A DNA stretch of 64,000 bases from Patescibacteria group bacterium. Lineage in GTDB: Bacteria; Patescibacteriota; Patescibacteriia; Patescibacteriales; WJLG01. The position numbers were made by a program, and so were the translations under genes. The notes below the pieces were generated by a model. That model made no database searches, had not been told where the DNA came from, and worked only from the letters and a program-made list of their open reading frames with translations. The stretch spans positions 2,847 to 66,846 of the forward strand of contig JBAZHE010000001.1 in assembly GCA_041652555.1 (NCBI GenBank). Direction: 5' to 3'. How positions within the stretch are numbered: the first letter of the stretch is position 1; each line of letters starts with the position of its first letter. This document shows positions 4,649 through 60,935 of this stretch, piece after piece.

Positions 4649-4664
4649 AAAATATAAATTGCTG

Positions 4665-4738
4665 TGCGTCCAGATGGACTTGAACCATCGACCCCAGCTT
4701 TATAAGAGCTGTGCTCTGACCAACTGAGCTATGGACGC
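4665..4738 (-). tRNA. tRNA-Ile (anticodon UAU)
   Basis: The reverse complement GCGTCCATAGCTCAGTTGGTCAGAGCACAGCTCTTATAAAGCTGGGGTCGATGGTTCAAGTCCATCTGGACGCA folds as a cloverleaf. Acceptor GCGTCCA/TGGACGC, anticodon stem CAGCT/AGCTG, loop CTTATAA giving anticodon TAT, T-arm GATGG-TTCAAGT-CCATC. CCA is not encoded. Confidence 0.88.
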
Positions 4739-7535: not shown

Positions 7536-10172
7536 ATGTCAGAAGAATTTGAAAAACAATATAATCCGTCTGACTATGAGGACACTGTCAATAAAGAATG
7601 GGAAGATTCGGGGTTTTTTAATCCGGATAATTTAAATTTGAGTGACAAGGCTGAGTCTTATACTATTGTTTTGCCTCCGCCGAATGTGACTGACAAATTG
7701 CATGTCGGGCACGCTTCTATGATTGCGATTGAAGATTTATTGATTCGTTATAAAAGAATGAATGGTTTTCGCGCTCTCTGGATTCCTGGCACTGATCACG
7801 CCGCCATTGCCACTCAAAACGTCGTAGAAAAAAGATTATTCAAAGAAACAGGAAAAACTCGCCACGACCTAGGGCGAGAAGATTTTTTAACCAAAGTCAA
7901 TGATTTTGCCTTAGGCACTCAAGAAACCATTTTAAACCAAATCAAAAAAATGGGCGCCTCTATGGATTGGTCACGCCTAGCTTTTACTTTGGACGAACAA
8001 CGCGGACAAGCTGTCAAAAAGATGTTTATTGATATGTATAACGACGGTATAATTTACCGCGGCGAACGCGTAGTCAACTGGTGCCCTCGCTGTCAATCAA
8101 CTCTGGCTGATGATGAAATTGAATACAGGGAACAAGCCACCAAGCTCTATACTTTTAAATATTCCGCCGATTTTCCAATAACCATTTCCACTACTCGCCC
8201 AGAAACAAAACTCGGTGATACCGCCGTGGCTGTTAACCCAAAAGATGAACGCTACAAAAAATATATCGGCCAAACTTTTAAAGTTGATTTTGTCGGTATA
8301 CCTTTGAATATAAAAATCATTACTGACATCGGAGTAGAAATGGAATTTGGCACTGGCGCTCTCGGTGTTACTCCAGCGCATTCCATGGTTGATTATCAAA
8401 TGTCTTTAAAAAATGATTTGGCAATGATAAAAGTCATTGATGAAAATGGCAAAATCCATAATGGTTTTGGAGAATATTCCAGCTTAAGCGTTGCTGAGGC
8501 ACGTGAAAAAGTTGTAGAAAATTTACGCACTCAAGGCTTAATGATTAAAGAAGAAGAAATACAAAATAATTTATCTGTTTGTTATCGCTGTGACACTGGC
8601 ATTGAACCAATTCCTTCCAAACAATGGTTTATTAATGTTGATAAAAAATTAGAACGCCTAGGCAACAAATCCTTAAAAGAAATTTCCCTAGAAGCGGCTG
8701 AAAAAAATGAAATAAACTTTACCCCCGAAAGATTTAAAAAAACCTATATTGACTGGATGAATAATTTGCACGACTGGTGCATCTCCCGCCAAATTTGGTA
8801 CGGACATCGCATTCCTGCTTGGTATAAAAAATCAAAGGGAGAAGTTTTTGTTGGTGAAAATGCACCAGAAGGAAATGACTGGACTCAAGATGAAGACACC
8901 CTAGATACTTGGTTCTCATCAGGTATGTGGACTTTTTCAACACTTGGTTGGCCGGATAATTTTAAAGATGGCAAAAAAATAAACGAACTAGCCAAATTTC
9001 ATCCAACACAACTTTTAGATACGGGCTCAGAAATTATTACTCTTTGGGTTTCTAGAATGATTTTGATGTCTTACTATGCTCTAGGAGAAAAACCATTCTC
9101 TAATGTTTATCTCCACGGTATGATTTTGGATGAAAAAGGTAAAAAAATGTCTAAGTCCAAAGGCAACGGCATTGATCCATTAGAAGTTATCGCTAAATAC
9201 GGCAACGACGCCTTACGCTTGGCTTTGCTCATCGGCTCAACCCCAGGAAATAACGCAAAAATGTCCTGGGAAAAAATTGAAGCCCAAAGAAATTTTGTTA
9301 ATAAACTTTGGAACATAGCCAGATATATAATTATAAATTATGAATTATTAATTATAAATGAAATTCCAGAGGTGAATGAAAAAGATTTAACAGCAGCCGA
9401 TGAATGGATTATTTATCAACTCAACACTCTAAAATTAGGCGTCATTGAAGACATTGATAATTTTTCTTTTTCTCAAGCTGGCGAAAAATTAATTGATTTT
9501 ATTTGGAATGATTTTGCTGATTGGTATTTAGAGGTTTGTAAATTTGAAAATGGTAATAGTAAAAAACCGATTTTAATTTATATTCTTAGGAGTATTTTAA
9601 AACTTTTACATCCTTTTGCTCCATTTGTAACTGAAGTAATATGGAAAAAATTTAACGCCTCCTTGTTGATGGTAGAAAAATATCCCGTAGCCGGATCTGG
9701 CGCCGGAGCTATTAAAGGAGGCTTTAATATAATAAAAAATATTGTTACGACCATTCGTAATGCTCGTAGTGAAAATAAAGTTGAGCCAGCTAAAAAAGTT
9801 GAGGCGATTATTTATGCTGGAGAAAATTTTGAATTAATCAAACAAAATGAGATAATAATAAAGAGTTTAAAAACTGGAATTAACGATTTGAAAATATTAA
9901 AAAAAGGCGAAAAAATTCCTGACGCCATTTATGTCGCCGTTGGTGAAATTGAGATATACTTAATAGGTGCGATTGATACAGCCAAAGAAAAAGCTCGTTT
10001 AGAAAAAGAAATTGCCAATCTAGAAAAATTTGTTTCCGCTTTGAATGGAAAATTATCCAACAAAGAATTCGCCGAAAAAGCCCCAGAAAAAGTAGTAACA
10101 ATTGAAAAAGAAAAATTAACCAAAGCCGAAACAGAATTATCAAAACTAAAAGAGCAACTACTTAAAATCTAA
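7536..10172 (+). CDS. valS: valine--tRNA ligase
   Basis: 878 aa with PPPNVTDKLHVGHA (HIGH), KMSKSKGN and a C-terminal coiled coil. Confidence 0.96.
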   Translation: MSEEFEKQYNPSDYEDTVNKEWEDSGFFNPDNLNLSDKAESYTIVLPPPNVTDKLHVGHASMIAIEDLLIRYKRMNGFRALWIPGTDHAAIATQNVVEKRLFKETGKTRHDLGREDFLTKVNDFALGTQETILNQIKKMGASMDWSRLAFTLDEQRGQAVKKMFIDMYNDGIIYRGERVVNWCPRCQSTLADDEIEYREQATKLYTFKYSADFPITISTTRPETKLGDTAVAVNPKDERYKKYIGQTFKVDFVGIPLNIKIITDIGVEMEFGTGALGVTPAHSMVDYQMSLKNDLAMIKVIDENGKIHNGFGEYSSLSVAEAREKVVENLRTQGLMIKEEEIQNNLSVCYRCDTGIEPIPSKQWFINVDKKLERLGNKSLKEISLEAAEKNEINFTPERFKKTYIDWMNNLHDWCISRQIWYGHRIPAWYKKSKGEVFVGENAPEGNDWTQDEDTLDTWFSSGMWTFSTLGWPDNFKDGKKINELAKFHPTQLLDTGSEIITLWVSRMILMSYYALGEKPFSNVYLHGMILDEKGKKMSKSKGNGIDPLEVIAKYGNDALRLALLIGSTPGNNAKMSWEKIEAQRNFVNKLWNIARYIIINYELLIINEIPEVNEKDLTAADEWIIYQLNTLKLGVIEDIDNFSFSQAGEKLIDFIWNDFADWYLEVCKFENGNSKKPILIYILRSILKLLHPFAPFVTEVIWKKFNASLLMVEKYPVAGSGAGAIKGGFNIIKNIVTTIRNARSENKVEPAKKVEAIIYAGENFELIKQNEIIIKSLKTGINDLKILKKGEKIPDAIYVAVGEIEIYLIGAIDTAKEKARLEKEIANLEKFVSALNGKLSNKEFAEKAPEKVVTIEKEKLTKAETELSKLKEQLLKI

Positions 10173-10196
10173 AATTACGATTTGAGATTTACTGCT

Positions 10197-10607
10197 ATGA
10201 CTTTGAAAAACTATTTAATCCTAATGTCTACAATGACAGTTATCTGTCTGGGTGTTTTTGTTTCTGTTCTTTTGATTATTGATCCATTTTCCACTAATTA
10301 CATCGGTTTTATTTTATTTTATATCTCTCTTTTTTTAGCACTCTCCGGAGTCTTTTCTTTGCTCGGATTTTTTGCTCGCTTTATTCTTTTCCGCCAAGCT
10401 TTAGTTTTCCGTTTAGTCGCTGACGCTTTCCGTCAAGCAATTCTTTTATCCTTAACACTCTGCGCTGCCCTCTTTCTCCTCTCCCGCGACCTTTTCAATT
10501 GGCTTAATTTCATTCTACTTTTAGGTGTTGCTGTCATCCTAGAATACATCCTTTTATCAGGCAACCGCCCTCGCCGCTACCGCACACCAGTAATAGATGA
10601 AAATTAA
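10197..10607 (+). CDS. small integral membrane protein
   Basis: Four predicted hydrophobic helices. ATG 10197 is preferred to TTG 10182. Confidence 0.55.
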   Translation: MTLKNYLILMSTMTVICLGVFVSVLLIIDPFSTNYIGFILFYISLFLALSGVFSLLGFFARFILFRQALVFRLVADAFRQAILLSLTLCAALFLLSRDLFNWLNFILLLGVAVILEYILLSGNRPRRYRTPVIDEN

Positions 10608-10640
10608 AATTAATTTTTAGAATAACTATTTACACCCAAA

Positions 10641-10690
10641 AACACACCCCGTCGCGGATTACCGCGCCACCCCTCTTGCTAGAGGGGATT
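10641..10690 (-). repeat. GC-rich double-hairpin repeat, copy A (inverted orientation)
   Basis: Reverse complement: AATCCCCTCTAGCAAGAGGGGTGGCGCGGTAATCCGCGACGGGGTGTGTT. Confidence 0.85.
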
Positions 10691-10703
10691 AAAAGTTAAT
10701 TAT

Positions 10704-11732
10704 ATGAAAGAAAAATTGGAAAATTTAAAAAAAGAAATTTTGGAACAGCTTGGTAAAATAGCTGACGGCCAAGCTTTGCAAGATTTTGAAAATAAATACC
10801 TTTCCCGAAAAGGTGAAATTTCTAGTATCTTGCGTGGCCTTAAAGACTTAGGCGACAAAGAAAAAAAGGAAATCGGTGAATTAGCCAACAGCATAAAAAC
10901 TGATGTTTATTCAGAGTTTGAAAAAATCAAAACAACCATTTCTGGACAAAAAACAGCCGACGCCTCCCTAGACGTCACCCTGCCTGGCAAAAAAATCCCA
11001 GCCGGTCATATGCACCCTCTCTCACAAGTGCAATACGAACTAGAAGACCTTTTTACTTCTATGGGTTTTATGGTTTTGGATGGACCAGAGTTAGAAAGTG
11101 ATTATTATAATTTTGAAGCTTTAAATATTCCCAAAACTCACCCCGCTCGCGACATGCAAGACACTTTTTATATTGATAAAAAGAATGACGATGGCGAATA
11201 TGATTTATTAATGAGAACTCATACTTCCCCGGTCCAAATTCGCGCGATGCAAAAATACGGTGCGCCTCTTAAAGCGATTATTCCCGGACGTTGTTTTCGC
11301 TCGGAAGCGACTGATGCCCGCCATGAACACACGCTATATCAGATGGAAGGAATTTTGATTGATAAAGATATTAATTTTTCTCACCTTAAAGGAGTTTTAG
11401 AATTAGTTGGAAAAAAATTATTCGGCCCAGAAACCAAATTGCGGATGCGCCCAAAATTCTATCCATTTGTTGAGCCAGGCACAAACGGCGAATATACTTG
11501 TTCATTATGTGGCGGCAAAGGTTGCCGAGTCTGCAAAAATTCCGGCTGGCTAGAAGTAATCGGCGCCGGCCTAATCCACCCCGAAGTCCTACGTGCTGGT
11601 GGCCTTGATCCAGAAATCTACTCCGGCTTCGCCTTCGGTTTCGGCCTATCTCGCCTAGCCCAATTAAAATACGGAATCGACGACGCCCGTTTGGCTTTAA
11701 GCGGAGACATTCGTTTCCTTTCTCAATTTTAA
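10704..11732 (+). CDS. pheS: phenylalanine--tRNA ligase alpha subunit
   Basis: Class II core with HPARDMQDTFY, RTHTSPVQIR and FRSEATDARHEHTLYQMEG. Confidence 0.95.
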   Translation: MKEKLENLKKEILEQLGKIADGQALQDFENKYLSRKGEISSILRGLKDLGDKEKKEIGELANSIKTDVYSEFEKIKTTISGQKTADASLDVTLPGKKIPAGHMHPLSQVQYELEDLFTSMGFMVLDGPELESDYYNFEALNIPKTHPARDMQDTFYIDKKNDDGEYDLLMRTHTSPVQIRAMQKYGAPLKAIIPGRCFRSEATDARHEHTLYQMEGILIDKDINFSHLKGVLELVGKKLFGPETKLRMRPKFYPFVEPGTNGEYTCSLCGGKGCRVCKNSGWLEVIGAGLIHPEVLRAGGLDPEIYSGFAFGFGLSRLAQLKYGIDDARLALSGDIRFLSQF

Positions 11733-14944: not shown

Positions 14945-14973
14945 GAGATTGCCACGCTTCGCTCGCAATGACA
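14945..14973 (+). repeat. solo arm of second repeat family (GAGATTGCCACGCTTCGCTCGCAATGACA)
   Basis: It matches the right arm at 57846-57873 (GATTTCTCGCTTCGCTCGAAATGAC). It ends 4 nt before the ATG at 14978. Confidence 0.6.
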
Positions 14974-16105: not shown

Positions 16106-16315
16106 ATGGAAGAGCAACAATTTCAAGCTCAGCCGGAAGTAAAGCCGAAATCCGGTTTAGCCAAAGTCATTATTATTAACGTGATAATCACCTTAATAAT
16201 TTCGGCCGTGATGAGTTTTATAATCTCCTCTATGGTTTTCAGTCAGAAGTTTTCTGATTTAGAAACATTACAAAAAAAGCTAGACGCTTTTTCAAATAAA
16301 ATAAAAATAAATTAA
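16106..16315 (+). CDS. small single-TM protein (69 aa)
   Basis: ATG-initiated ORF with one hydrophobic helix. Confidence 0.5.
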
Positions 16316-16386
16316 TCCCCTCTAGAAAGAGGGGTGGCTGGACCCAACGGGTCGCCTTTGGCGTACTCCGAGACGGAGTGTGTTTT
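16314..16386 (+). repeat. GC-rich double-hairpin repeat, copy B (expanded)
   Basis: AATCCCCTCTAGAAAGAGGGGTGGC[TGGACCCAACGGGTCGCCTTTGGC]GTACTCCGAGACGGAGTGTGTT. It starts inside the TAA stop of the upstream gene and ends 4 nt before the uvrB ATG. Confidence 0.85.
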
Positions 16387-46717: not shown

Positions 46718-46721
46718 TATT

Positions 46722-46812
46722 AATCCCCTCTAGAAATCTGTCTGTCCGGTAGGCAGGGAGGGGTGGTTCGGTACTCCGATTTATCCCGTTCGCTGGAGAC
46801 GGGGTGTGTTGT
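46722..46812 (+). repeat. GC-rich double-hairpin repeat, copy C (both loops expanded)
   Basis: AATCCCCTCTAGAAATCTGTCTGTCCGGTAGGCAGGGAGGGGTGGTTCGGTACTCCGATTTATCCCGTTCGCTGGAGACGGGGTGTGTTGTG. Confidence 0.8.
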
Positions 46813-47933: not shown

Positions 47934-48488
47934 ATGAATCAATATTTACAAGAAAAAAAGTTGGAGTTTGACAAGGTTATAGAATTCTTCAGGAAAGACA
48001 TTAGCTCTTTGCGTACCGGTCGCGCTAATGTAGCGATGTTGGATGGAATAACCGTGGAGGCTTATGGCATAAAAAATCCACTCGTTTCTGTCGGTAATAT
48101 TTCTACGACTGATGCCAAGAGTATTGTTATCACGCCTTGGGATAAAGGAGTTTTAAAAGATGTGGAGAAAGCGATTATGGAAGCTAATCTTGGTTTGGGT
48201 ATTGTCAATGAAGGTGATAAAATTCGCTTAACCGTTTCACCGATGACTGAAGAAGTCCGCAAGGAGTTAGTAAAAAAATTGAATGAAAAGAATGAGCACG
48301 CTAAGGTTTCTGCCCGTGGTATTCGTGAAATTATAAAAAAATCAATCGAGGAGGCTGAAAAAGACGGTGCGATTTCTGAAGATGATAGTGAGCGTTTTAT
48401 GAAAGAGATGGATGAGGAAGTGAAAAAGATTAACGACGAATTAAAAGGTATCCGCGACAAAAAAGAAGCGGAAATAATGACAATTTAA
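47934..48488 (+). CDS. frr: ribosome recycling factor
   Basis: 184 aa. LRTGRANVAMLDGITVEAYG...PWDK follows the RRF pattern. Confidence 0.93.
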   Translation: MNQYLQEKKLEFDKVIEFFRKDISSLRTGRANVAMLDGITVEAYGIKNPLVSVGNISTTDAKSIVITPWDKGVLKDVEKAIMEANLGLGIVNEGDKIRLTVSPMTEEVRKELVKKLNEKNEHAKVSARGIREIIKKSIEEAEKDGAISEDDSERFMKEMDEEVKKINDELKGIRDKKEAEIMTI

Positions 48489-48490
48489 TA

Positions 48491-48540
48491 AATCCCCTCT
48501 AGAAAGAGGGGTGGCTCGGTACTCCGAGACGGGGTGTGTG
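48491..48540 (+). repeat. GC-rich double-hairpin repeat, copy D (canonical)
   Basis: AATCCCCTCTAGAAAGAGGGGTGGCTCGGTACTCCGAGACGGGGTGTGTG. Hairpin 1 is CCCCTCT/AGAGGGG and hairpin 2 is CTCGG-TACT-CCGAG. Confidence 0.9.
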
Positions 48541-48570
48541 AAATTTAACACCTTTGCTATATATTCAGCG

Positions 48571-48615
48571 CGGCAGGAACCCCTTCAGGAGATCCTGCCG
48601 GAGCCAATTTTTTTT
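48571..48615 (+). terminator. hairpin plus U8 tract ending at the rseP start codon
   Basis: CGGCAGGA-14 nt-TCCTGCCG, then GAGCCAA and TTTTTTTT, immediately followed by ATG 48616. Confidence 0.4.
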
Positions 48616-55210: not shown

Positions 55211-55233
55211 ATCCGACTTAATTAAGTCGGATT
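55208..55233. terminator. bidirectional terminator hairpin between convergent genes
   Basis: AAATCCGACTT-AATT-AAGTCGGATTT flanked by an A-run and a T-run. Confidence 0.7.
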
Positions 55234-56666
55234 TATTTTTGAAAAGTTTTTTTATCGCGTCGTTGTTTGTGAAAGGTTATGGCAAAACGATGCGCCTCGT
55301 CTCGAACACGCTTAATAATATGTAGAGCAGGGGAGGCCAGAGGGAGAACAAGAGGTTTTTTTATTTTTGGAAAGAAAATTCTGTCTGGCGCTTTAGCTGA
55401 GCGCAAGCCGTCACCCTTAGAAACCCCAAGTATTGGAATATCAAGCTTGAATTTCTTTAAAATAGCCAGTCCGGCATTAAGCTGCCCTTTTCCGCCGTCA
55501 ATAATTATTAAGTCAGGCAATGGCCAATTATTATTAAATCTTCTCTCTAAAATTTCTTTTAACATTCCCGTGTCATCACCTTTAGAAATTGATAATTGAT
55601 CATTGATAATTGAAGATTTAATCTTGAATTTCCGATATTGGCTTTTATCCGGTTCGCCGTTTTTAAAAACTACCATTGATCCAACAGCTTCTTGGCCAAA
55701 TAAATTAGAAATATCATAGCCTTCTATTCTTTGTGGAATTTTTGGTAGAGCAAGAATTTTTGCTAATTCCACCACGTCGGCGGCGTATTTTTCATGAACA
55801 CTTAAAACGTTAGAATGCGCTAAAACATTCCGCATCTGCAAAAGACGATATTTCAATTGCCGAATTTTTTCAGATATTAATTCCCCTCTTGAGAGGGGTG
55901 GCCCGTACTCGGGACGGGGTGTGTGAGGCTTGGTATCGGTTAAAAGTTTTTTTTGAAGATTGATAATTGAAGATTGAAAATTTTTCTCTATATCTTTCCG
56001 TCGTCCTTCCAAGAAGGCAATAATTTCTTTAATAATTTTTTTGTATTCAATAATGTCTGTTGGTGCGCCGTAGATTTCTGGATAACGGCGATTTTTTATT
56101 TGGCTATTTTTATTATCAGGCATTGTAGCAAATCTTCCGTAAGGAAAAATCTTGGCAATTGCTTTAATTGTTTCTCTGACTGCTCCACCAGAAGTAAACG
56201 GCCCGAAGTATCTTCCTGAGGAAATATTCCCCTCTTGAGAGGGGTGGCCCGTACTCGGGACGGGGTGTGTAAGGCCGTTAGGGGGAATTGTTTTTTTAAG
56301 ATTAACCCCAATTGTTCTAGTAGTTAAAATTTTTGGCCATTCGTCATTAGTAATTTTTATATAAAGATGTCGCTTGTCGTCGCGCATTATTATATTGTAA
56401 TCTGGTTGATATTTTTTTATTAAATTTGCTTCCAATAAAAGCGCTTCAATTTCCGAACCAACTTCTATCCATTTTATTTTAGCGATTTTTGTAAGCATGG
56501 ATTGCTTGGCTCCGCTTAATTCTGCGCTTTTACTCCAATACGAAAGCACCCGCGATTTAAGATTCGCGGCTTTGCCGACATAAATAATTTTGCCAGCTTT
56601 ATCATAATACTGATAAGACCCTGGCGTTGTCGGAAGATTAAGTTTCTTGACTTGTTCTAAATTCAT
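55233..56666 (-). CDS. uvrC: excinuclease ABC subunit C (short form lacking the C-terminal HhH domain)
   Basis: GIY-YIG N-terminus (PGSYQYYDKAGKIIYVGKAANLKSR), YFGPF and an RNase-H-like endonuclease region ending in VRDEAHRFAI. GGGGG lies 8 nt upstream of ATG 56666. Confidence 0.9.
   Translation of the reverse strand: MNLEQVKKLNLPTTPGSYQYYDKAGKIIYVGKAANLKSRVLSYWSKSAELSGAKQSMLTKIAKIKWIEVGSEIEALLLEANLIKKYQPDYNIIMRDDKRHLYIKITNDEWPKILTTRTIGVNLKKTIPPNGLTHPVPSTGHPSQEGNISSGRYFGPFTSGGAVRETIKAIAKIFPYGRFATMPDNKNSQIKNRRYPEIYGAPTDIIEYKKIIKEIIAFLEGRRKDIEKNFQSSIINLQKKLLTDTKPHTPRPEYGPPLSRGELISEKIRQLKYRLLQMRNVLAHSNVLSVHEKYAADVVELAKILALPKIPQRIEGYDISNLFGQEAVGSMVVFKNGEPDKSQYRKFKIKSSIINDQLSISKGDDTGMLKEILERRFNNNWPLPDLIIIDGGKGQLNAGLAILKKFKLDIPILGVSKGDGLRSAKAPDRIFFPKIKKPLVLPLASPALHIIKRVRDEAHRFAITFHKQRRDKKTFQK
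55880..55928 (+). repeat. GC-rich double-hairpin repeat, copy E (inside uvrC)
   Basis: ATTCCCCTCTTGAGAGGGGTGGCCCGTACTCGGGACGGGGTGTGTGAGG, translated on the minus strand as KPHTPRPEYGPPLSRGE. Confidence 0.9.
56226..56274 (+). repeat. GC-rich double-hairpin repeat, copy F (inside uvrC)
   Basis: ATTCCCCTCTTGAGAGGGGTGGCCCGTACTCGGGACGGGGTGTGTAAGG, identical to copy E over 45 nt. Translated on the minus strand as GLTHPVPSTGHPSQEGN. Confidence 0.9.
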
Positions 56667-56739
56667 ATTATTCCCCCTTCTTTGCAAGAAAAAATTAGTA
56701 GTGGTTAGATATTTAAAGTTTAGGCGTTATTATCTAAAA

Positions 56740-56808: not shown

Positions 56809-57633
<825 letters not shown>

Positions 57634-57778: not shown

Positions 57779-57873
57779 ACGTAGCGTAGCGTAGGGAGAA
57801 ATCTCTTGAAGTCTGTTGCTCACTTAAAGTTTAAGCGATTTCTCGCTTCGCTCGAAATGACGAGAAAATATGG
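57779..57873. repeat. second repeat family: imperfect inverted repeat with ~25-35 nt arms around a ~30-nt spacer
   Basis: Left arm TGTCATTTCGAACGTAGCGTAGCGTAGGGAGAAATC. Right arm GATTTCTCGCTTCGCTCGAAATGACGAG. It ends at the helicase start codon (57870). Confidence 0.7.
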
Positions 57874-60800
57874 AAAATAAAAAAACTCAATTAAATAAAG
57901 AACAAGAAGCGGCTGTTTTACATGGTCAGGGGCCACTTTTGATTGTGGCTGGGGCTGGAACCGGTAAAACTTGCGTTATTACTGAGCGCATTGTTAATTT
58001 GATTAATTCGGGGCTGGCGCAGTCTAGTGAAATATTGGCTTTAACTTTTACAGAAAAAGCTGCTGGGGAGATGGTGGAGCGCGTGGATAGACTTTTGCCT
58101 TTGGGTTATTATGATTTGAATATTTCCACTTTTCATTCTTTTTGTCAGGAAGTTTTGAATGATTCAGGTCTAGATATTGGTTTGCCGACAAATTTTAAAT
58201 TGTTAAATGAATTTGAACAGTATAGTTTATTTAAAAAACATTTAGACAGGTTTGGTTTGATTTACTATCAGCCAATGGGCAATCCGACCAAGTTTATCAG
58301 AGAAATTTTGAAGCATATTTCGCGTTGTAAAGATGAGGATATTACCCCTTTAGAATATTTGTGTTATGCCGAAGAATTACGACAGGACTTAGACGGAATG
58401 TTGGGTGCGGTGAAAGGTTCCAAGAAGGGGAAGAGTAATAATGTTTTTCTGAATTCCAAGGGAGAGTTTGATAGAGAGGTTGCTGAGCAAGAAGTTAAAA
58501 AAATTGAAGAGGTTGCAAACGCCTATCATATTTATCAGAATTTGCTCCTGGAAAATAATGCTTTGGATTTTGGTGATTTGATAAATTATTGTTTAAAACT
58601 TTTTCGTGAACGGCCAAATGTTTTGGAAAAATATCGCGCTCGTTTTAAATATATTCTTGTTGATGAATTTCAAGATACTAATTGGGCGCAATATGAATTA
58701 GTAAAAATGTTAGCCGCACCACAAAATAATATCACCGTCGTAGGAGACGACGACCAGAGTGTTTACAGATTTAGAGGAGCGGCGATGGCTAATATTTTAG
58801 AATTTAAAAAAGATTATCCTGATTGTCAGCAAGTTTTTTTGCGAGAAAATTATCGCAGTGCACAAGAAATTCTTAATTCTTCTTATGAATTTATTAAATT
58901 AAATAATCCTAATCGTTTAGAAGCGCAATTAGCCTCTGACGGCTCCGGGCTTTCAAAGAAATTAAAATCAAATATTTCCGATAAAGGCTTAATAGAAGTA
59001 ATTCGCGGAGCTGATATTGTTGATGAATTAGCGCGTGTAGTAAAAAAGATTGCTGATATCAAGACCGAAGACAAAGAAGCTAAATGGAGCGACTTTGCAA
59101 TCTTGGCTCGCGCCAATGACCCGGCTAAAGAAATTTGTTCTTATTTGGATGAAGCTGGTTTCCCTTATAAATTAAATTCTTCCCGCGGACTTTATGCTAA
59201 GGAGGAGATTTTAAATTCTATTGCCTACTTAACTGCTCTGTCTGATTATTACGATGGCGTGGCGCTTTACAAGAGTTTATCTTTGCCGGTTTTTGGTTTG
59301 ACAGTTGAGAATTTAACTACGCTTAATTATTTAGTTTACAAAAAAGGTTCCTCTCTTTATAAAATATTAAACGAAGCGGCGGCGATGGGGGTTGGCAGTG
59401 TTTGCTTGACTAAGGTTAATAAATTTTTAGCAGTTTTTAAAAAGCATTTGACTGAATTGCGTGAAAAAAGTGCAGGAGAAATGTTTTTGTCTTTTTTAAA
59501 TGATTCTGGTTATTTGAAATATCTTACTTCTTTGGGTGGCAGAAGAGAAGTAGAGGCGTCTAATCTTTTGAATCAGTTTATGCGCCGGATAAAAAGCTTT
59601 GAAGCTAATTCTGGCGACAAAAGTGTCCGGGCTTTTTTGAATGAGCTTTTAGTGGAGATTGAAGCTGGCGAACAAGGAACACTGCCTTTTGACGAGGGCG
59701 ATAGTCCTGATACCATAAAAATAATGACAGTTCATGCTTCTAAGGGTTTGGAATTTAAATATGTTTTTATTATAAATTTAATAGACAAGCGTTTTCCGTC
59801 TATTGAACGTAGTGAGTCAATAAAAATACCAGATGCGCTTTTGGATGAAAAATTACCAGAAGGGGATCATCATTTAGAAGAAGAACGCCGGCTTTTTTAT
59901 GTAGCAATGACCCGCGCAAAAAAAGGCTTGTATCTCTCTTGGTCATCGGATGCTGGCGGTAAACGTGAACGCCGAGCTTCTAGGTTTTTAGTAGAAACAG
60001 GATTAGTAGAAGATTTAACTTTAGAAAATTCTGAAGATGATAAAATAACTCCCCTCTTGGGAGGGGTGCCCGAAGGGCGGGGAGGGTTGCTCGAAGTGAA
60101 GCCTGTTGTTGAAGAAAAAAATAAAGAAGAAAAATTTATTCCAAAAGCTCCAGAAAGATTTTCTTATTCTCAATTTGCTGCTTACGAAAAATGTCCTTAT
60201 CAATATCGTTTTGCCAATGTTTTAAAAATTCCTGTCCACGGCAAACCATCTTTTTCTTTTGGAAAAACCATGCACGCTACTTTTCAAAAGATTCTTCAAA
60301 TAGTCCAACAAGCCGGAGAAAAAACCCAAGATAGCTTATTTAATGACCCTGCCGTAGGAACAGGGCACTGCCCTGTTCTGTCTTTAGAAGAGTGCTACAA
60401 AGTCTATGCCGAATCTTGGGAGGACGATTGGTATCCGTCAGAAAAATTAAAAGAAGAATATCGCGCCAACGGCAAAAGAATCGTCAAAGAATTTTACGAA
60501 GAACACAAAGACAACTGGCCAAAAGTTTTATTTTTGGAAAAAGGTTTTTCTCTACGAATGAAAGTTGATGGCGAAGGAATAACAATCGCCGGAAAAATTG
60601 ACCGTATTGACGAAACACCAGACGGAAAATTAAGAATTATTGATTACAAAACCGGCAGTCCAAAAGAAAAATTAACCTTTGAAGACAAAGCTCAGTTATT
60701 AATTTATCAAACAGCAGCTAAGCAATTTTTTCACCAAGAAGTTGGCGCCTTAGTTTTTCGCTACCTAGAAGACGGAAGCGAAATAGAATTCCTTGGCAAA

Positions 60801-60935
60801 GATAAAGACTTTGAAAAATTAGACGAAAAAATCTGCGAAGCAGTCCGTGCTATCCGCTCGGGTGAATTCCCACCCAAGCCGGTTATGTGCAAGTATTGCG
60901 ACTTTAACGGAATTTGTGAATACCGAAAACTTTAA
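57870..60935 (+). CDS. UvrD/PcrA-like helicase fused to a C-terminal PD-(D/E)XK (Cas4/AddB-type, Cys-cluster) nuclease
   Basis: Walker A AGAGTGKT, VDEFQDTN, VGDDDQSVYRFRGA and MTVHASKGLEF. C-terminal KCPYQYRF...GKIDRIDETPDGKLRIIDYKTG...CKYCDFNGIC. Confidence 0.88.
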   Translation: MENKKTQLNKEQEAAVLHGQGPLLIVAGAGTGKTCVITERIVNLINSGLAQSSEILALTFTEKAAGEMVERVDRLLPLGYYDLNISTFHSFCQEVLNDSGLDIGLPTNFKLLNEFEQYSLFKKHLDRFGLIYYQPMGNPTKFIREILKHISRCKDEDITPLEYLCYAEELRQDLDGMLGAVKGSKKGKSNNVFLNSKGEFDREVAEQEVKKIEEVANAYHIYQNLLLENNALDFGDLINYCLKLFRERPNVLEKYRARFKYILVDEFQDTNWAQYELVKMLAAPQNNITVVGDDDQSVYRFRGAAMANILEFKKDYPDCQQVFLRENYRSAQEILNSSYEFIKLNNPNRLEAQLASDGSGLSKKLKSNISDKGLIEVIRGADIVDELARVVKKIADIKTEDKEAKWSDFAILARANDPAKEICSYLDEAGFPYKLNSSRGLYAKEEILNSIAYLTALSDYYDGVALYKSLSLPVFGLTVENLTTLNYLVYKKGSSLYKILNEAAAMGVGSVCLTKVNKFLAVFKKHLTELREKSAGEMFLSFLNDSGYLKYLTSLGGRREVEASNLLNQFMRRIKSFEANSGDKSVRAFLNELLVEIEAGEQGTLPFDEGDSPDTIKIMTVHASKGLEFKYVFIINLIDKRFPSIERSESIKIPDALLDEKLPEGDHHLEEERRLFYVAMTRAKKGLYLSWSSDAGGKRERRASRFLVETGLVEDLTLENSEDDKITPLLGGVPEGRGGLLEVKPVVEEKNKEEKFIPKAPERFSYSQFAAYEKCPYQYRFANVLKIPVHGKPSFSFGKTMHATFQKILQIVQQAGEKTQDSLFNDPAVGTGHCPVLSLEECYKVYAESWEDDWYPSEKLKEEYRANGKRIVKEFYEEHKDNWPKVLFLEKGFSLRMKVDGEGITIAGKIDRIDETPDGKLRIIDYKTGSPKEKLTFEDKAQLLIYQTAAKQFFHQEVGALVFRYLEDGSEIEFLGKDKDFEKLDEKICEAVRAIRSGEFPPKPVMCKYCDFNGICEYRKL
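60048..60096 (+). repeat. GC-rich double-hairpin repeat, copy G (divergent, inside helicase gene)
   Basis: ACTCCCCTCTTGGGAGGGGTGCCCGAAGGGCGGGGAGGGTTGCTCGAAG, translated as TPLLGGVPEGRGGLLE. Confidence 0.7.

Follow-up and report, generated by a model that had tools for sequence, protein, structure and literature searches.

Triplex-motif repeats in a Patescibacteria genome: a multi-phylum repeat family and its association with DUF559 endonuclease genes

The window, by which we mean the whole 64,000-nucleotide stretch of Patescibacteria DNA analysed here, contains exactly seven full copies of a short, GC-rich repeat, labelled A to G in order of position. With filters off, the covariance model finds nothing besides these seven below E ~0.2 in the window, and shuffles predict none. 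The pattern AGAGGGGTGG-N14-ACGGGGTGTGT occurs at two sites in the window against 0.00 expected, and CCCCTC-N2-14-GAGGGG at six sites against 0.02. The census bears out an earlier note on this DNA, which had described a non-random family of seven members and not GC patches, six of them in one orientation (copy A is the sole copy on the minus strand); the letters at 48491-48540 also read as it described them. Four copies occupy short gaps between co-directional genes, and three are in-frame inserts in coding sequence. The genes around the copies, assigned with Pfam, include uvrB, holB, a gene for a BNR/sortilin-like protein, frr and rseP. The seven copies, and the parts of the canonical copy D, are:

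48490..48540, plus strand: copy D, canonical, in the frr-rseP gap (covariance model 60.7 bits, E 1.7e-21; 7/7 triads)
48494..48500, plus strand: pyrimidine arm CCCCTCT of copy D, 5' arm of hairpin 1 (from the sequence)
48505..48511, plus strand: purine arm AGAGGGG of copy D, 3' arm of hairpin 1 (from the sequence and cross-locus pairing)
48512..48530, plus strand: turn of copy D, made up of TGG, hairpin 2 (CTCGG-TACT-CCGAG) and AC (from cross-locus covariation)
48531..48539, plus strand: predicted third-strand segment GGGGTGT of copy D, then GT (from three-way covariation)
10641..10691, minus strand: copy A, between ORF 10182..10607 and pheS (10704..11732; Pfam) (covariance model 60.2 bits; 7/7 triads)
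16313..16384, plus strand: copy B, upstream of uvrB (covariance model 43.2 bits; 6/7 triads)
about 46721..46810, plus strand: copy C, in the gap between holB and the BNR/sortilin-like gene (covariance model 18.7 bits, E 7e-5; 6/7 triads)
55879..55925, plus strand: copy E, within uvrC (55233..56687, minus strand) and antisense to it (covariance model 60.2 bits)
56225..56271, plus strand: copy F, within uvrC and antisense to it (covariance model 59.7 bits)
60047..60088, plus strand: copy G, degenerate, within a UvrD-like helicase-nuclease gene (57870..60935), sense (covariance model 30.0 bits; 6/7 triads)

Copies B, C and D begin 0-6 nt past the stop codons of co-directional genes: the 5' TAAT of copy B itself provides the stop codon of ORF 16106..16315, copy C starts 4 nt past the holB stop codon, and copy D starts 2 nt past that of frr (48486-48488). 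The earlier note had placed the intergenic copies 0-5 nt after a stop codon, which describes these three; copy A departs from it, lying 34 nt past the upstream stop codon and antisense to both flanking genes. Relative to local transcription, copies B, C, D and G are sense and copies A, E and F antisense. According to the covariance model all seven are singletons, with no inverted doublets in the window. Internal insertions are present in copy B (~21 nt in hairpin 2) and in copy C, where the loop of hairpin 1 is longer by ~21 nt and 17 nt are inserted 3' of hairpin 2. Intergenic copies have CTAGAAAG or CTAGCAAG as their loop, and coding copies have CTTGAG or CTTGGG; the contrast between the two groups had been noted before, with CTTGAG as the only coding form. 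The flanks of all seven copies were inspected for target-site duplications, a check that had been proposed for a mobile unit, and show neither a duplication nor a conserved target beyond an A/T-rich 5' flank (aAuU in the covariance-model consensus). Positive GC skew marks the strand that carries six of the seven copies, a bias that is not significant at n=7.

The conserved core of the element is hairpin 1 together with GGGGTGT. From 5' to 3' it consists of the pyrimidine arm CCCCTCT, a loop, the purine arm AGAGGGG, a turn and the third strand GGGGTGT, the last being the mirror of the purine arm with T in place of A. Judged from its sequence, this layout is that of a class II purine-motif intrastrand DNA triplex motif of the BoxC/PIT/TMECO kind, the fold itself being predicted. 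As defined by Holder et al. 2015 (PMC4666352), class II motifs consist of a 5' pyrimidine arm, a purine arm and a mirroring 3' strand, with G·G:C, T·A:T or A·A:T triads. The window copies have all of these parts, and in each copy six or seven of the seven triads are canonical. Copy B carries a single G-to-A change in the third strand, and the third strand of copy G is GGGGAGG, an A·A:T variant. For the related E. coli TMECO/BoxC motif, triplex folding has been demonstrated in vitro, for TMECO only, and DMS footprinting could not show the TMECO triplex in vivo (Holder et al., PMC4666352).

A genome scan for hairpin 1 followed by TGG returned at least 119 loci in more than 15 phyla. Among the matches listed, 129 of 136 also bear a GGGGTGT-type 3' tail, which the scan had not asked for, and a hairpin of variable length lies between TGG and the tail, the turn with hairpin 2 ranging from 0 to about 60 nt. 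The earlier note had asked for further copies elsewhere, and there are many, in other genomes and in metagenome loci. Inverted doublets with a spacing of 10-25 nt are frequent in other genomes, which also contain tail-to-tail doublets without a DUF559 gene. A short form of the element is present in 59 IMG/VR viral loci. None of these 59 loci has a DUF559 gene, which says little on horizontal transfer.

Among the at least 119 element-anchored loci listed, DUF559 is the sole non-generic recurrent neighbour; it occurs in six of them, with matches to PF04480 (Pfam) at E values of 1e-26 to 1e-35. The other recurrent neighbours among the matches listed are generic (response regulators/kinases and ABC transporters), and neither an HUH IS200-like tyrosine transposase nor any other non-generic family recurs beside the element among these matches. 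In a reverse test, 80 metagenome loci picked by DUF559 protein similarity alone were scanned with the element model. The scan gave 278 element matches in 199 kb, and 61 of the 80 loci have a match within 150 nt of the gene. Among the best 150 of the 278 matches, those within 100 nt upstream of the DUF559 gene are mainly forward (32 forward, 7 reverse), those within 100 nt downstream are mainly reverse (44 reverse, 9 forward), and almost none lie more than 400 nt from the gene. Inverted copies of the element thus bracket small DUF559 genes, which encode Vsr-fold PD-(D/E)xK endonucleases, across bacteria. Some loci show the whole arrangement, in which a forward copy stops a few bases short of the start codon of the DUF559 gene and a reverse copy provides its last codons (..HTP) and its stop codon. 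The same bracketing of a DUF559 gene is found in a Parcubacteria genome. In E. coli, TMECO number 9 lies ~165 nt downstream of ycjD, a DUF559 gene, and a degenerate reverse BoxC overlies the ycjD stop codon. This TMECO is one of 23 in E. coli K-12; the published TMECO work reported no gene association (PMC4666352).

The element variant tracks the similarity of the nuclease. Identity among the DUF559 proteins is 64.2% within an element variant against 56.4% between variants, and none of 5000 permutations is as extreme. These proteins all retain putative catalytic D, E, D and H residues; related PDB structures are 3HRL and 3R3P, the latter being the homing endonuclease I-Bth0305I. We found no description of a link between DUF559 and such repeats in the open-access literature. 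To our knowledge this very large protein family has no known role, and we know of no transposition intermediate or nuclease activity for DUF559. A six-frame hmmsearch of the 64-kb window recovered no DUF559 and no transposase, and the 8.7 kb beyond its right end contain no further copy of the element and no DUF559. The presence in this genome of a nuclease acting in trans is therefore an assumption.

The copies next to DUF559 genes allow a comparison across loci. In 143 distinct copies, hairpin 1 is 99.5% paired. The first position of the purine arm, its partner in the pyrimidine arm and position 7 of the third strand change together: T-A·T occurs in 117 copies, C-G·G in 22, T-G·G in 4 and mixed combinations in none (Fisher p = 4e-29, kinship ignored). 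All 26 copies with G at purine-arm position 1 also have G at third-strand position 7, and all 117 with A there have T; the G-bearing copies represent at least 13 loci. A pairing of G with G between purine arm and third strand is not Watson-Crick. This three-way covariation argues for selection in nature on the predicted three-stranded fold, or at least on its sequence logic. The RNAfold z-scores of single copies are modest, from +0.6 to -4.0, and it is the agreement among loci, and not folding energy, that supports the structure.

Hairpin 2 behaves differently from the core. It is missing in about 100 of the 143 distinct copies, and is an optional, hypervariable hairpin in the turn ahead of the third strand. 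Where it is present its pairing is maintained: stem 2 reads CTCGG/CCGAG in copy D, CGCGG/CCGCG in copy A and CCCG/CGGG in copies E and F, all five modelled pairs vary on both sides, and none of 500 shuffles reaches the observed covariation score. The compensatory changes in stem 2 that the earlier note had read in these copies are thus confirmed. The two-hairpin architecture it described is not the core of the element, which is hairpin 1 with the third strand; hairpin 2 is dispensable.

The start of copies B, C and D just past stop codons of co-directional genes would suit a structured RNA motif acting in cis, as a 3'-end stabiliser, terminator or processing site, and options of this kind had been put forward for the family. 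T-runs follow copies A and B, RNA folding of the two hairpins gives z-scores of -1.8 to -4.0, and E. coli REPs are known to influence 3' UTRs. Nevertheless, we regard an RNA element as very improbable. The copies are of mixed orientation, four sense and three antisense (A, E and F), and three of the seven lie inside coding sequence. No Rfam family matches the element even at E up to 10; in the window only two tRNAs reach the gathering score of Rfam 15, and nothing meaningful appears at E up to 10. The tail behaves as a DNA triplex strand: changes in GGGGTGT follow those in the purine arm in the combinations G-G and A-T, which Watson-Crick RNA pairing does not explain, and purine-motif triplexes form in DNA and are reported absent in RNA (Holder et al. 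2015, PMC4666352). A terminator scan makes no call on the sense strand of the element, and copy D has a canonical-looking terminator hairpin of its own 3' of the element and separate from it. For the related PIT elements Hoyne and Maher, as cited in PMC4666352, detected neither promoter nor terminator activity.

Copies E, F and G are 15-residue (45-nt) in-frame inserts in linkers of UvrC (two) and of the UvrD-like helicase. Copy E is translated as HTPRPEYGPPLSRGE (UvrC residues about 255-270) and copy F as THPVPSTGHPSQEGN (about 140-155); the two share 45 identical nucleotides, yet are read in different frames. Copy G contributes TPLLGGVPEGRGG to the linker that, by the Pfam limits, separates the UvrD_C and PDDEXK_1 domains. 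In an AlphaFold2 model of UvrC, residues 251-266 in the region of copy E are coil, with pLDDT <50 at 255-259, and pLDDT is <50 at residues 128-155 in the region of copy F. The inserted residues are, in this model, low-confidence loops that appear disordered. Of 24 UvrC orthologues, most lack residues at the site of copy E and 23 lack them at that of copy F. In the syntenic relative L268, the frr-rseP spacer corresponding to copy D is 44 nt, AT-rich and free of a copy, and the holB spacer syntenic to copy C is 41 nt with no copy. Empty sites, which the earlier note had proposed to seek in sister genomes, therefore exist for C and D between genes and for E and F within one. In L269 and L268 the helicase orthologues also contain a copy, 15-16 nt downstream of the position of copy G and in another frame. 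The window copies occupy insertion-tolerant places: after stop codons, in a short gap and in inter-domain linkers. Selection for avoidance of TAG in the coding copies was considered and is a weak candidate. The 45 nt of E and F are identical and so represent one variant, not two independent cases, and the element is largely stop-free anyway, its intergenic form being open already in two of three frames on each strand.

Among known repeats the element most resembles BoxC/PIT/TMECO, which have the same order of parts: a 5' pyrimidine arm, a purine arm and a 3' reverse-Hoogsteen strand mirroring the purine arm (class II). Both are short, GC-rich, multi-copy and mostly intergenic, often occur as inverted pairs, and vary in copy number among relatives. 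The shared architecture is filled by another sequence family. The window copies do not follow the TMECO consensus CCCTCNCCC-N3-6-GGGNGAGGG-N3-GGGNGAGGG; they form 7 triads, with T·A:T triples, from CCCCTCT/AGAGGGG/GGGGTGT, whereas TMECO has 9 triads from CCCTCNCCC/GGGNGAGGG/GGGNGAGGG. The present family extends over more than 15 phyla including Patescibacteria, and some of its copies lie within genes, whereas TMECOs are always intergenic. The turn is 12-57 nt and contains a hairpin in the window copies, against 3 nt in TMECO. The ITxF search allows a stem length of 6-15 nt and, for each of the two loops, 1-6 nt. In the window the stem measures 7 nt, loop 1 measures 2-4 nt (A, B and D-G) or 25 nt (C) and loop 2 measures 12-57 nt, and the published search would miss these copies; the short forms next to DUF559 genes, with a loop 2 of 3-5 nt, lie within its range. 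The turn of the window copies is also longer than the loops of 1-6 nt that have been searched or tested for triplex folding. BoxC/PIT/TMECO repeats have been described without a known function or mobilising enzyme (Hoyne and Maher 2000; Holder et al. 2015, PMC4666352), and Holder et al. found no link of TMECO to mobile elements (PMC4666352).

The element can also be set beside the CGTC-tagged REPs by description. These are defined by a CGTC (or TGTC/CCTC) tag at the end, adjoining the stem, together with a tail of three nucleotides, CCA (PMC3733652). On the strand opposite to copy D, the turn reads CGTC-stem-loop-stem-G-CCA, and the reverse strand of copies A-F has the same form with a 4-nt loop; many copies of the family have CCGG instead of CGTC. 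Like the present element, CGTC REPs are short GC-rich palindromes found just 3' of genes and in DNA-repair genes (excinuclease subunits, UvrD/Rep helicase), so that REPs within excinuclease and UvrD genes were already known (Di Nocera et al. 2013, PMC3733652). Head-to-head dimers occur in CGTC REPs and, in other genomes, in the present family. The stems differ: that of a CGTC REP is 8-9 bp long and opens with two A/T pairs, whereas here it has 4-6 bp, is GC-rich and is dispensable; a CGTC REP loop has 4-5 nt, with which the 4-nt loop agrees. The conserved hairpin 1 and third strand lie outside the REP definition. CGTC REPs were likewise reported without a dedicated transposase (PMC3733652).

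Rickettsia palindromic elements (RPE) are a further parallel, being palindromic in-frame inserts in coding genes of a small AT-rich genome that are translated at tolerant sites. RPE-1 is about 100-150 bp in size, and the inserts here are 45 nt. Copies E, F and G are in-frame palindromic inserts in genes, missing from orthologues, as RPEs are. RPEs differ in sequence and host lineage, and the triplex-type architecture is undescribed for them. RPE-4 and RPE-6 have been classed as CGTC REPs (PMC3733652).

Taken together, the seven copies are probably selfish, non-autonomous DNA repeats of a REP/BoxC-like, multi-phylum family, and may be served in trans by a DUF559 nuclease. Of the options offered by the earlier note, a mobile MITE-like DNA unit or a protein-binding site is the best fit; of the marks of a MITE, target-site duplications are absent from the flanks of the seven copies, and a single unit of the element lacks terminal inverted repeats. 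A defence system was also considered, and PADLOC gave only a weak match to a methyl-directed restriction enzyme. The element would act as DNA, either by folding when single-stranded or by being read as a palindromic duplex site. A DUF559 nuclease encoded elsewhere in the genome would recognise it and copy it, or maintain its copies, in trans, and effects of the element on transcripts would be secondary.

We infer the role of DUF559 as mobilising enzyme, and its association with the element could reflect co-inheritance or regulation of the DUF559 gene instead of mobilisation. The repeats would then be real, with the bracketing copies serving as regulatory or insulating elements of the gene, or with DUF559 as a host nuclease for triplex-induced lesions, and solo copies would arise by recombination, replication slippage, another transposase or phage. 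The forward copy does sit at the expected position of the ribosome-binding site, target-site duplications are absent, no DUF559 gene is present in the window or in the 59 element-bearing viral loci, and the TMECO study tied its motifs to local rearrangement, not transposition (PMC4666352). We consider this alternative unlikely, as the bracketing is two-sided, orientation-specific and recurrent across phyla, the element variant follows nuclease similarity, and no other non-generic neighbour recurs among the matches listed. The identity of the element sequence across phyla would also be hard to keep without a co-transferred, sequence-specific partner.

A repeat family served in trans by a nuclease has a known parallel. 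In REPIN-RAYT systems, REP doublets accompany a single-copy HUH tyrosine transposase gene that is flanked by them. The logic is shared, in that a small nuclease-type gene is bracketed by inverted short palindromic repeats that are also scattered, often as inverted doublets, and DUF559 with the present element would, by analogy, be the counterpart of the RAYT transposase with its REPINs. The putative partner here is a Vsr-fold PD-(D/E)xK endonuclease, whereas RAYT is an IS200-like HUH Y1 transposase; the present repeat is conserved in sequence across phyla, whereas REPINs are lineage-specific, and the window holds singletons only. More broadly, and with rather less than even confidence, we suggest that BoxC/PIT-type triplex repeats and DUF559 (YcjD-like, Vsr-fold) endonucleases may form a second REPIN-RAYT-like system, reaching from Patescibacteria to E. 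coli, in which the nuclease would recognise the three-stranded fold or the palindromic duplex and copy or maintain the repeats.

Triplex repeats of this kind were already known; the link to DUF559, the spread over many phyla and the hairpin-bearing turn are what is added. BoxC/PIT/TM repeats and CGTC REPs have lacked an enzyme or an agreed function, and the orientation-specific bracketing of DUF559 genes described here, including ycjD of E. coli, provides a concrete hypothesis that is testable in a model organism. If true, a REPIN-RAYT-like DUF559 system would assign a role to a very large family of proteins whose function is unknown and supply the missing enzyme for repeats unexplained since the 1990s. 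In Patescibacteria, such repeats insert extra peptide loops into DNA-repair proteins and make spacers longer in genomes that are very small, and they affect gene calling, protein models and assembly.

Copy D of the GC-rich repeat (48491-48540), with the 50-base sequence AAATCCCCTCTAGAAAGAGGGGTGGCTCGGTACTCCGAGACGGGGTGTGT, stands out against a window G+C content of ∼36%. Pattern searches recovered six matches to its hairpin 1 (arms CCCCTCT and AGAGGGG) versus 0.02 expected from shuffles, and two matches to the 3' two-thirds of the element versus 0.00 expected. A covariance model trained on 41 diverse copies and run with filters off found exactly seven full copies (A-G) and, beyond these, nothing in the window scoring below E ∼0.2. 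This census confirms the non-random seven-copy family that an earlier note had proposed from the sequence alone.

Copies of the repeat in the window, with covariance model scores
Copy D: 48490-48540, plus strand, 60.7 bits
Copy A: 10641-10691, minus strand, 60.2 bits
Copy E: 55879-55925, plus strand, 60.2 bits
Copy F: 56225-56271, plus strand, 59.7 bits
Copy B: 16313-16384, plus strand, 43.2 bits
Copy G: 60047-60088, plus strand, 30.0 bits
Copy C: 46721-46810, plus strand, 18.7 bits

Copies B and C contain internal insertions. According to Pfam, the adjoining genes are uvrB, pheS, holB, a BNR/sortilin-like protein gene, frr, rseP, uvrC and a UvrD-like helicase-nuclease gene, in agreement with the neighbours named in the note; its stem-2 variants, loop variants and orientation count also proved correct in the sequences of the copies. 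Copies E and F are identical over 45 nt and constitute one variant. The claim that intergenic copies closely follow the stop codons of co-directional genes fails for copy A, which is antisense and separated from the upstream stop by 34 nt. Relative to local genes, four copies are sense and three antisense. Directly after copy D, at 48565-48615, lies a hairpin, GGCAGGA..TCCTGCC, with a run of eight T residues 9 nt beyond it; this is probably the real frr terminator, distinct from the repeat.

Both hairpins of the proposed two-hairpin architecture exist, but the element also has a putative third strand. Its tail GGGGTGT is the mirror image of the purine arm AGAGGGG with T in place of A, so that the pyrimidine arm CCCCTCT is followed by the purine arm and a reverse-Hoogsteen strand. 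Exactly this strand order defines the class II purine-motif intrastrand triplex (Holder et al., PMC4666352), and in its architecture the window family conforms to this definition. Canonical triads occupy seven of seven positions in copies A, D, E and F and six of seven in B, C and G, with copy G using A*A:T. The Escherichia coli element TMECO (earlier BoxC or PIT), CCCTCNCCC-N3-6-GGGNGAGGG-N3-GGGNGAGGG, forms a triplex in vitro; the same study found it neither linked to mobile elements nor endowed with a function, local genome instability excepted (PMC4666352).

The third strand covaries with hairpin 1 in 143 distinct copies adjoining genes for DUF559 proteins (small predicted Vsr-fold endonucleases of the PD-(D/E)xK type), a set not chosen by the sequence of the copies themselves. 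The loop-proximal triple is T-A*T in 117 copies, C-G*G in 22 and T-G*G in four, with no mixed triples among the 143 (Fisher p = 4e-29, kinship ignored); at least 13 loci account for the G variants. A T-A*A triple occurs, at another position, in one sequence. A competing hairpin does not account for this covariation, since a purine-arm G facing a third-strand G is not a Watson-Crick pair. Hairpin 1 itself hardly varies in sequence, and its pairing reaches 99.5%. Only ∼43 of the 143 copies possess hairpin 2, which is therefore dispensable and is seated in the turn preceding the third strand. Each of the five modelled pairs of hairpin 2 shows changes on both sides (counts that ignore relatedness), which bears out the compensatory changes claimed for stem 2.

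Scanning one genome per species with the pattern TCCCCTCT-N2-6-AGAGGGGTGG, we found the element at at least 119 loci. The matches listed include Verrucomicrobiota, Bacteroidota, Planctomycetota, Ignavibacteriota, Cloacimonadota, Bacillota (Pelosinus), Pseudomonadota (Cysteiniphilum), Glassbacteria, Zixibacteria, Aminicenantes, Sumerlaeota, Nitrospinota, Patescibacteria and others, with host G+C of 0.30-0.71. The GGGGTGT-type tail, which lies outside the search pattern, is present in 129 of the 136 matches listed; the hairpin preceding it measures 0 to ∼60 nt and differs in sequence nearly everywhere among them. Many genomes contain inverted doublets 10-25 nt apart. Rfam holds no family matching the element. 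Some IMG/VR loci labelled viral (L215, L243, L244, L248 and others) include ones with many short-form copies, among them 14 matches in the 10-kb L215; no DUF559 gene was found in the loci bearing the short form.

Clustering of the ORFs from all of the at least 119 element-anchored loci yielded, among the loci listed, a sole recurrent non-generic neighbour, a protein of 130-150 residues that occurs at six loci in different phyla and belongs to Pfam DUF559. At each of the six, a forward copy precedes the gene and the 3' end of the gene runs into a reverse copy. The association was recovered in the reverse direction from 80 metagenome loci picked by DUF559 protein similarity alone, which gave 278 model matches over 199 kb. 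Among the best 150 of these, 32 forward versus 7 reverse copies lie in the 100 nt upstream of the gene, 44 reverse versus 9 forward in the 100 nt downstream, and almost none more than 400 nt away; at 61 of the 80 loci a match lies no farther than 150 nt from the gene. Where the junctions are clearest, 3-10 nt separate the end of the forward copy from the start codon, and the reverse copy provides the terminal ..HTP and stop codon (ACACACCCC-TAA-TCCCCTC). A Parcubacteria DUF559 gene (P0233) is bracketed in the same way and shares the CTTGAG loop of copies E and F. Nucleases flanked by the G/G variant are 64.2% identical to one another versus 56.4% to nucleases beside the A/T variant (0 of 5000 permutations as extreme). 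The family comprises at least about 8000 proteins below 1e-10, shows no variation at the putative catalytic residues D, E, D and H, and has as PDB relatives 3HRL and I-Bth0305I, a Vsr-like homing endonuclease. At L120 (1365-2244) and L029 (5700-6470), dense arrays of copies alternating in orientation, at least 10 within 1 kb, and tandem DUF559 units are reminiscent of BIME-like clusters. Neither the window nor its 8.7 kb extension contains a DUF559 gene.

The family matches the NCBIfam YcjD model, and the annotation of E. coli K-12 ycjD (1351407-1351760, minus strand) likewise names a DUF559 domain. TMECO number 9 (1351204-1351239; Table 1 of Holder et al., PMC4666352) lies ∼165 nt downstream of ycjD, the stop codon of which is overlapped by a degenerate reverse BoxC (NC_000913.3 1351203-1351421, 9204-9422 of locus L208). 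This layout matches that of element-flanked DUF559 genes in other phyla. By a rough estimate, 23 motifs in 4.6 Mb give a ∼0.3% chance of one within 300 nt of a given gene.

Comparison with relatives revealed empty sites, which the note had suggested looking for in sister genomes. In the relative L268 the order holB, lipoprotein, frr, rseP ... uvrC, helicase, ruvB, queA is conserved, and the covariance model finds no copy in its AT-rich holB-lipoprotein (41 nt) and frr-rseP (44 nt) spacers. The helicase orthologues of L269 and L268 do contain a copy (53.7 and 16.4 bits), located ∼15-16 nt downstream of the copy G position, whose reading frame and hairpin 2 both differ from those of copy G; this linker has thus been hit, or remodelled, more than once. 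Compared with L268 (uvrC at 10001-11302), the uvrC gene of the window (55233-56687) has the opposite orientation with respect to frr and the helicase gene, and the NTP-transferase gene preceding it in relatives was not seen beside the window uvrC.

The coding copies form in-frame inserts. Copies E and F lie antisense within uvrC in two different reading frames, giving HTPRPEYGPPLSRGE and THPVPSTGHPSQEGN, and their common 45 nt correspond to 15 codons; copy G lies sense within the helicase gene, in the linker between the Pfam domains UvrD_C and PDDEXK_1. The window UvrC is 100% identical to that of one Patescibacteria MAG, and the next-closest orthologues, Falkowbacteria among them, share 58-73% identity. 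In an alignment of 25 UvrC proteins the E and F sites are empty of residues in most orthologues, and in other lineages these linkers contain repeat-derived peptides of their own (for example SPLERGG and PPLGGGVRGG). An AlphaFold2 model of UvrC predicts the inserts as low-confidence coil (pLDDT <50 at residues 128-155 and 255-259).

Other features were seen in the window. A GC-rich near-palindrome at 60343-60380, AACAGGGCAC/TGCCCTGTT, marks a second variable helicase site, where L268 and L269 have inserts of ∼35-40 residues. A further palindromic GC-rich repeat, ATTGCCACGCTTCGCTCGCAATGAC, occurs once, at 14948-14972; variable linkers of UvrC and helicase orthologues hold the peptides SLRGAEATWQSH, IASS..PRND and CHPERAVATKGS, which may derive from this repeat type. 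Within the minus-strand ORF 56809..57633, a GCC-type tandem repeat (56973-57117; periods 6, 15 and 21) codes for an extended Ala/Val tract, and at 4664-4738, minus strand, tRNA-Ile (anticodon TAT) adjoins tRNA-Val (GAC).

The earlier interpretation is thus partly supported: of its options, the mobile-type DNA repeat gains support, with more to its structure than two hairpins, and an RNA element is disfavoured by the mixed orientation of the copies and by the reported inability of RNA to form purine-motif triplexes (PMC4666352). No target-site duplication was found at the window copies. The element probably acts as DNA, and a DUF559 nuclease may recognize it in its folded form or as a palindromic site in duplex DNA, and might copy or maintain it in trans, by analogy with RAYT and REPINs. 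The solo copies of the window would then be a non-autonomous form surviving where insertion does little harm.

The class of element is already known. BoxC/PIT/TMECO shares the architecture but differs in sequence and has a turn without a hairpin; the arms of the window family do not follow the TMECO consensus, its turn is longer than the loops allowed in the published motif search, and its stems do not match those that define REPs. Hairpin 2, whose reverse strand reads CGTC-stem-loop-stem-CCA, resembles CGTC-tagged REPs, which occur within excinuclease and UvrD genes and have no dedicated transposase reported (PMC3733652). Rickettsia palindromic elements likewise form in-frame coding inserts, and REPIN-RAYT systems follow a similar logic with a different enzyme. 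What is new, as far as we checked, is the variant and its occurrence within Patescibacteria genes, together with the triplex covariation and the link to DUF559, the last being absent from the open-access literature searched. The DUF559 association turns an old question into a testable one.
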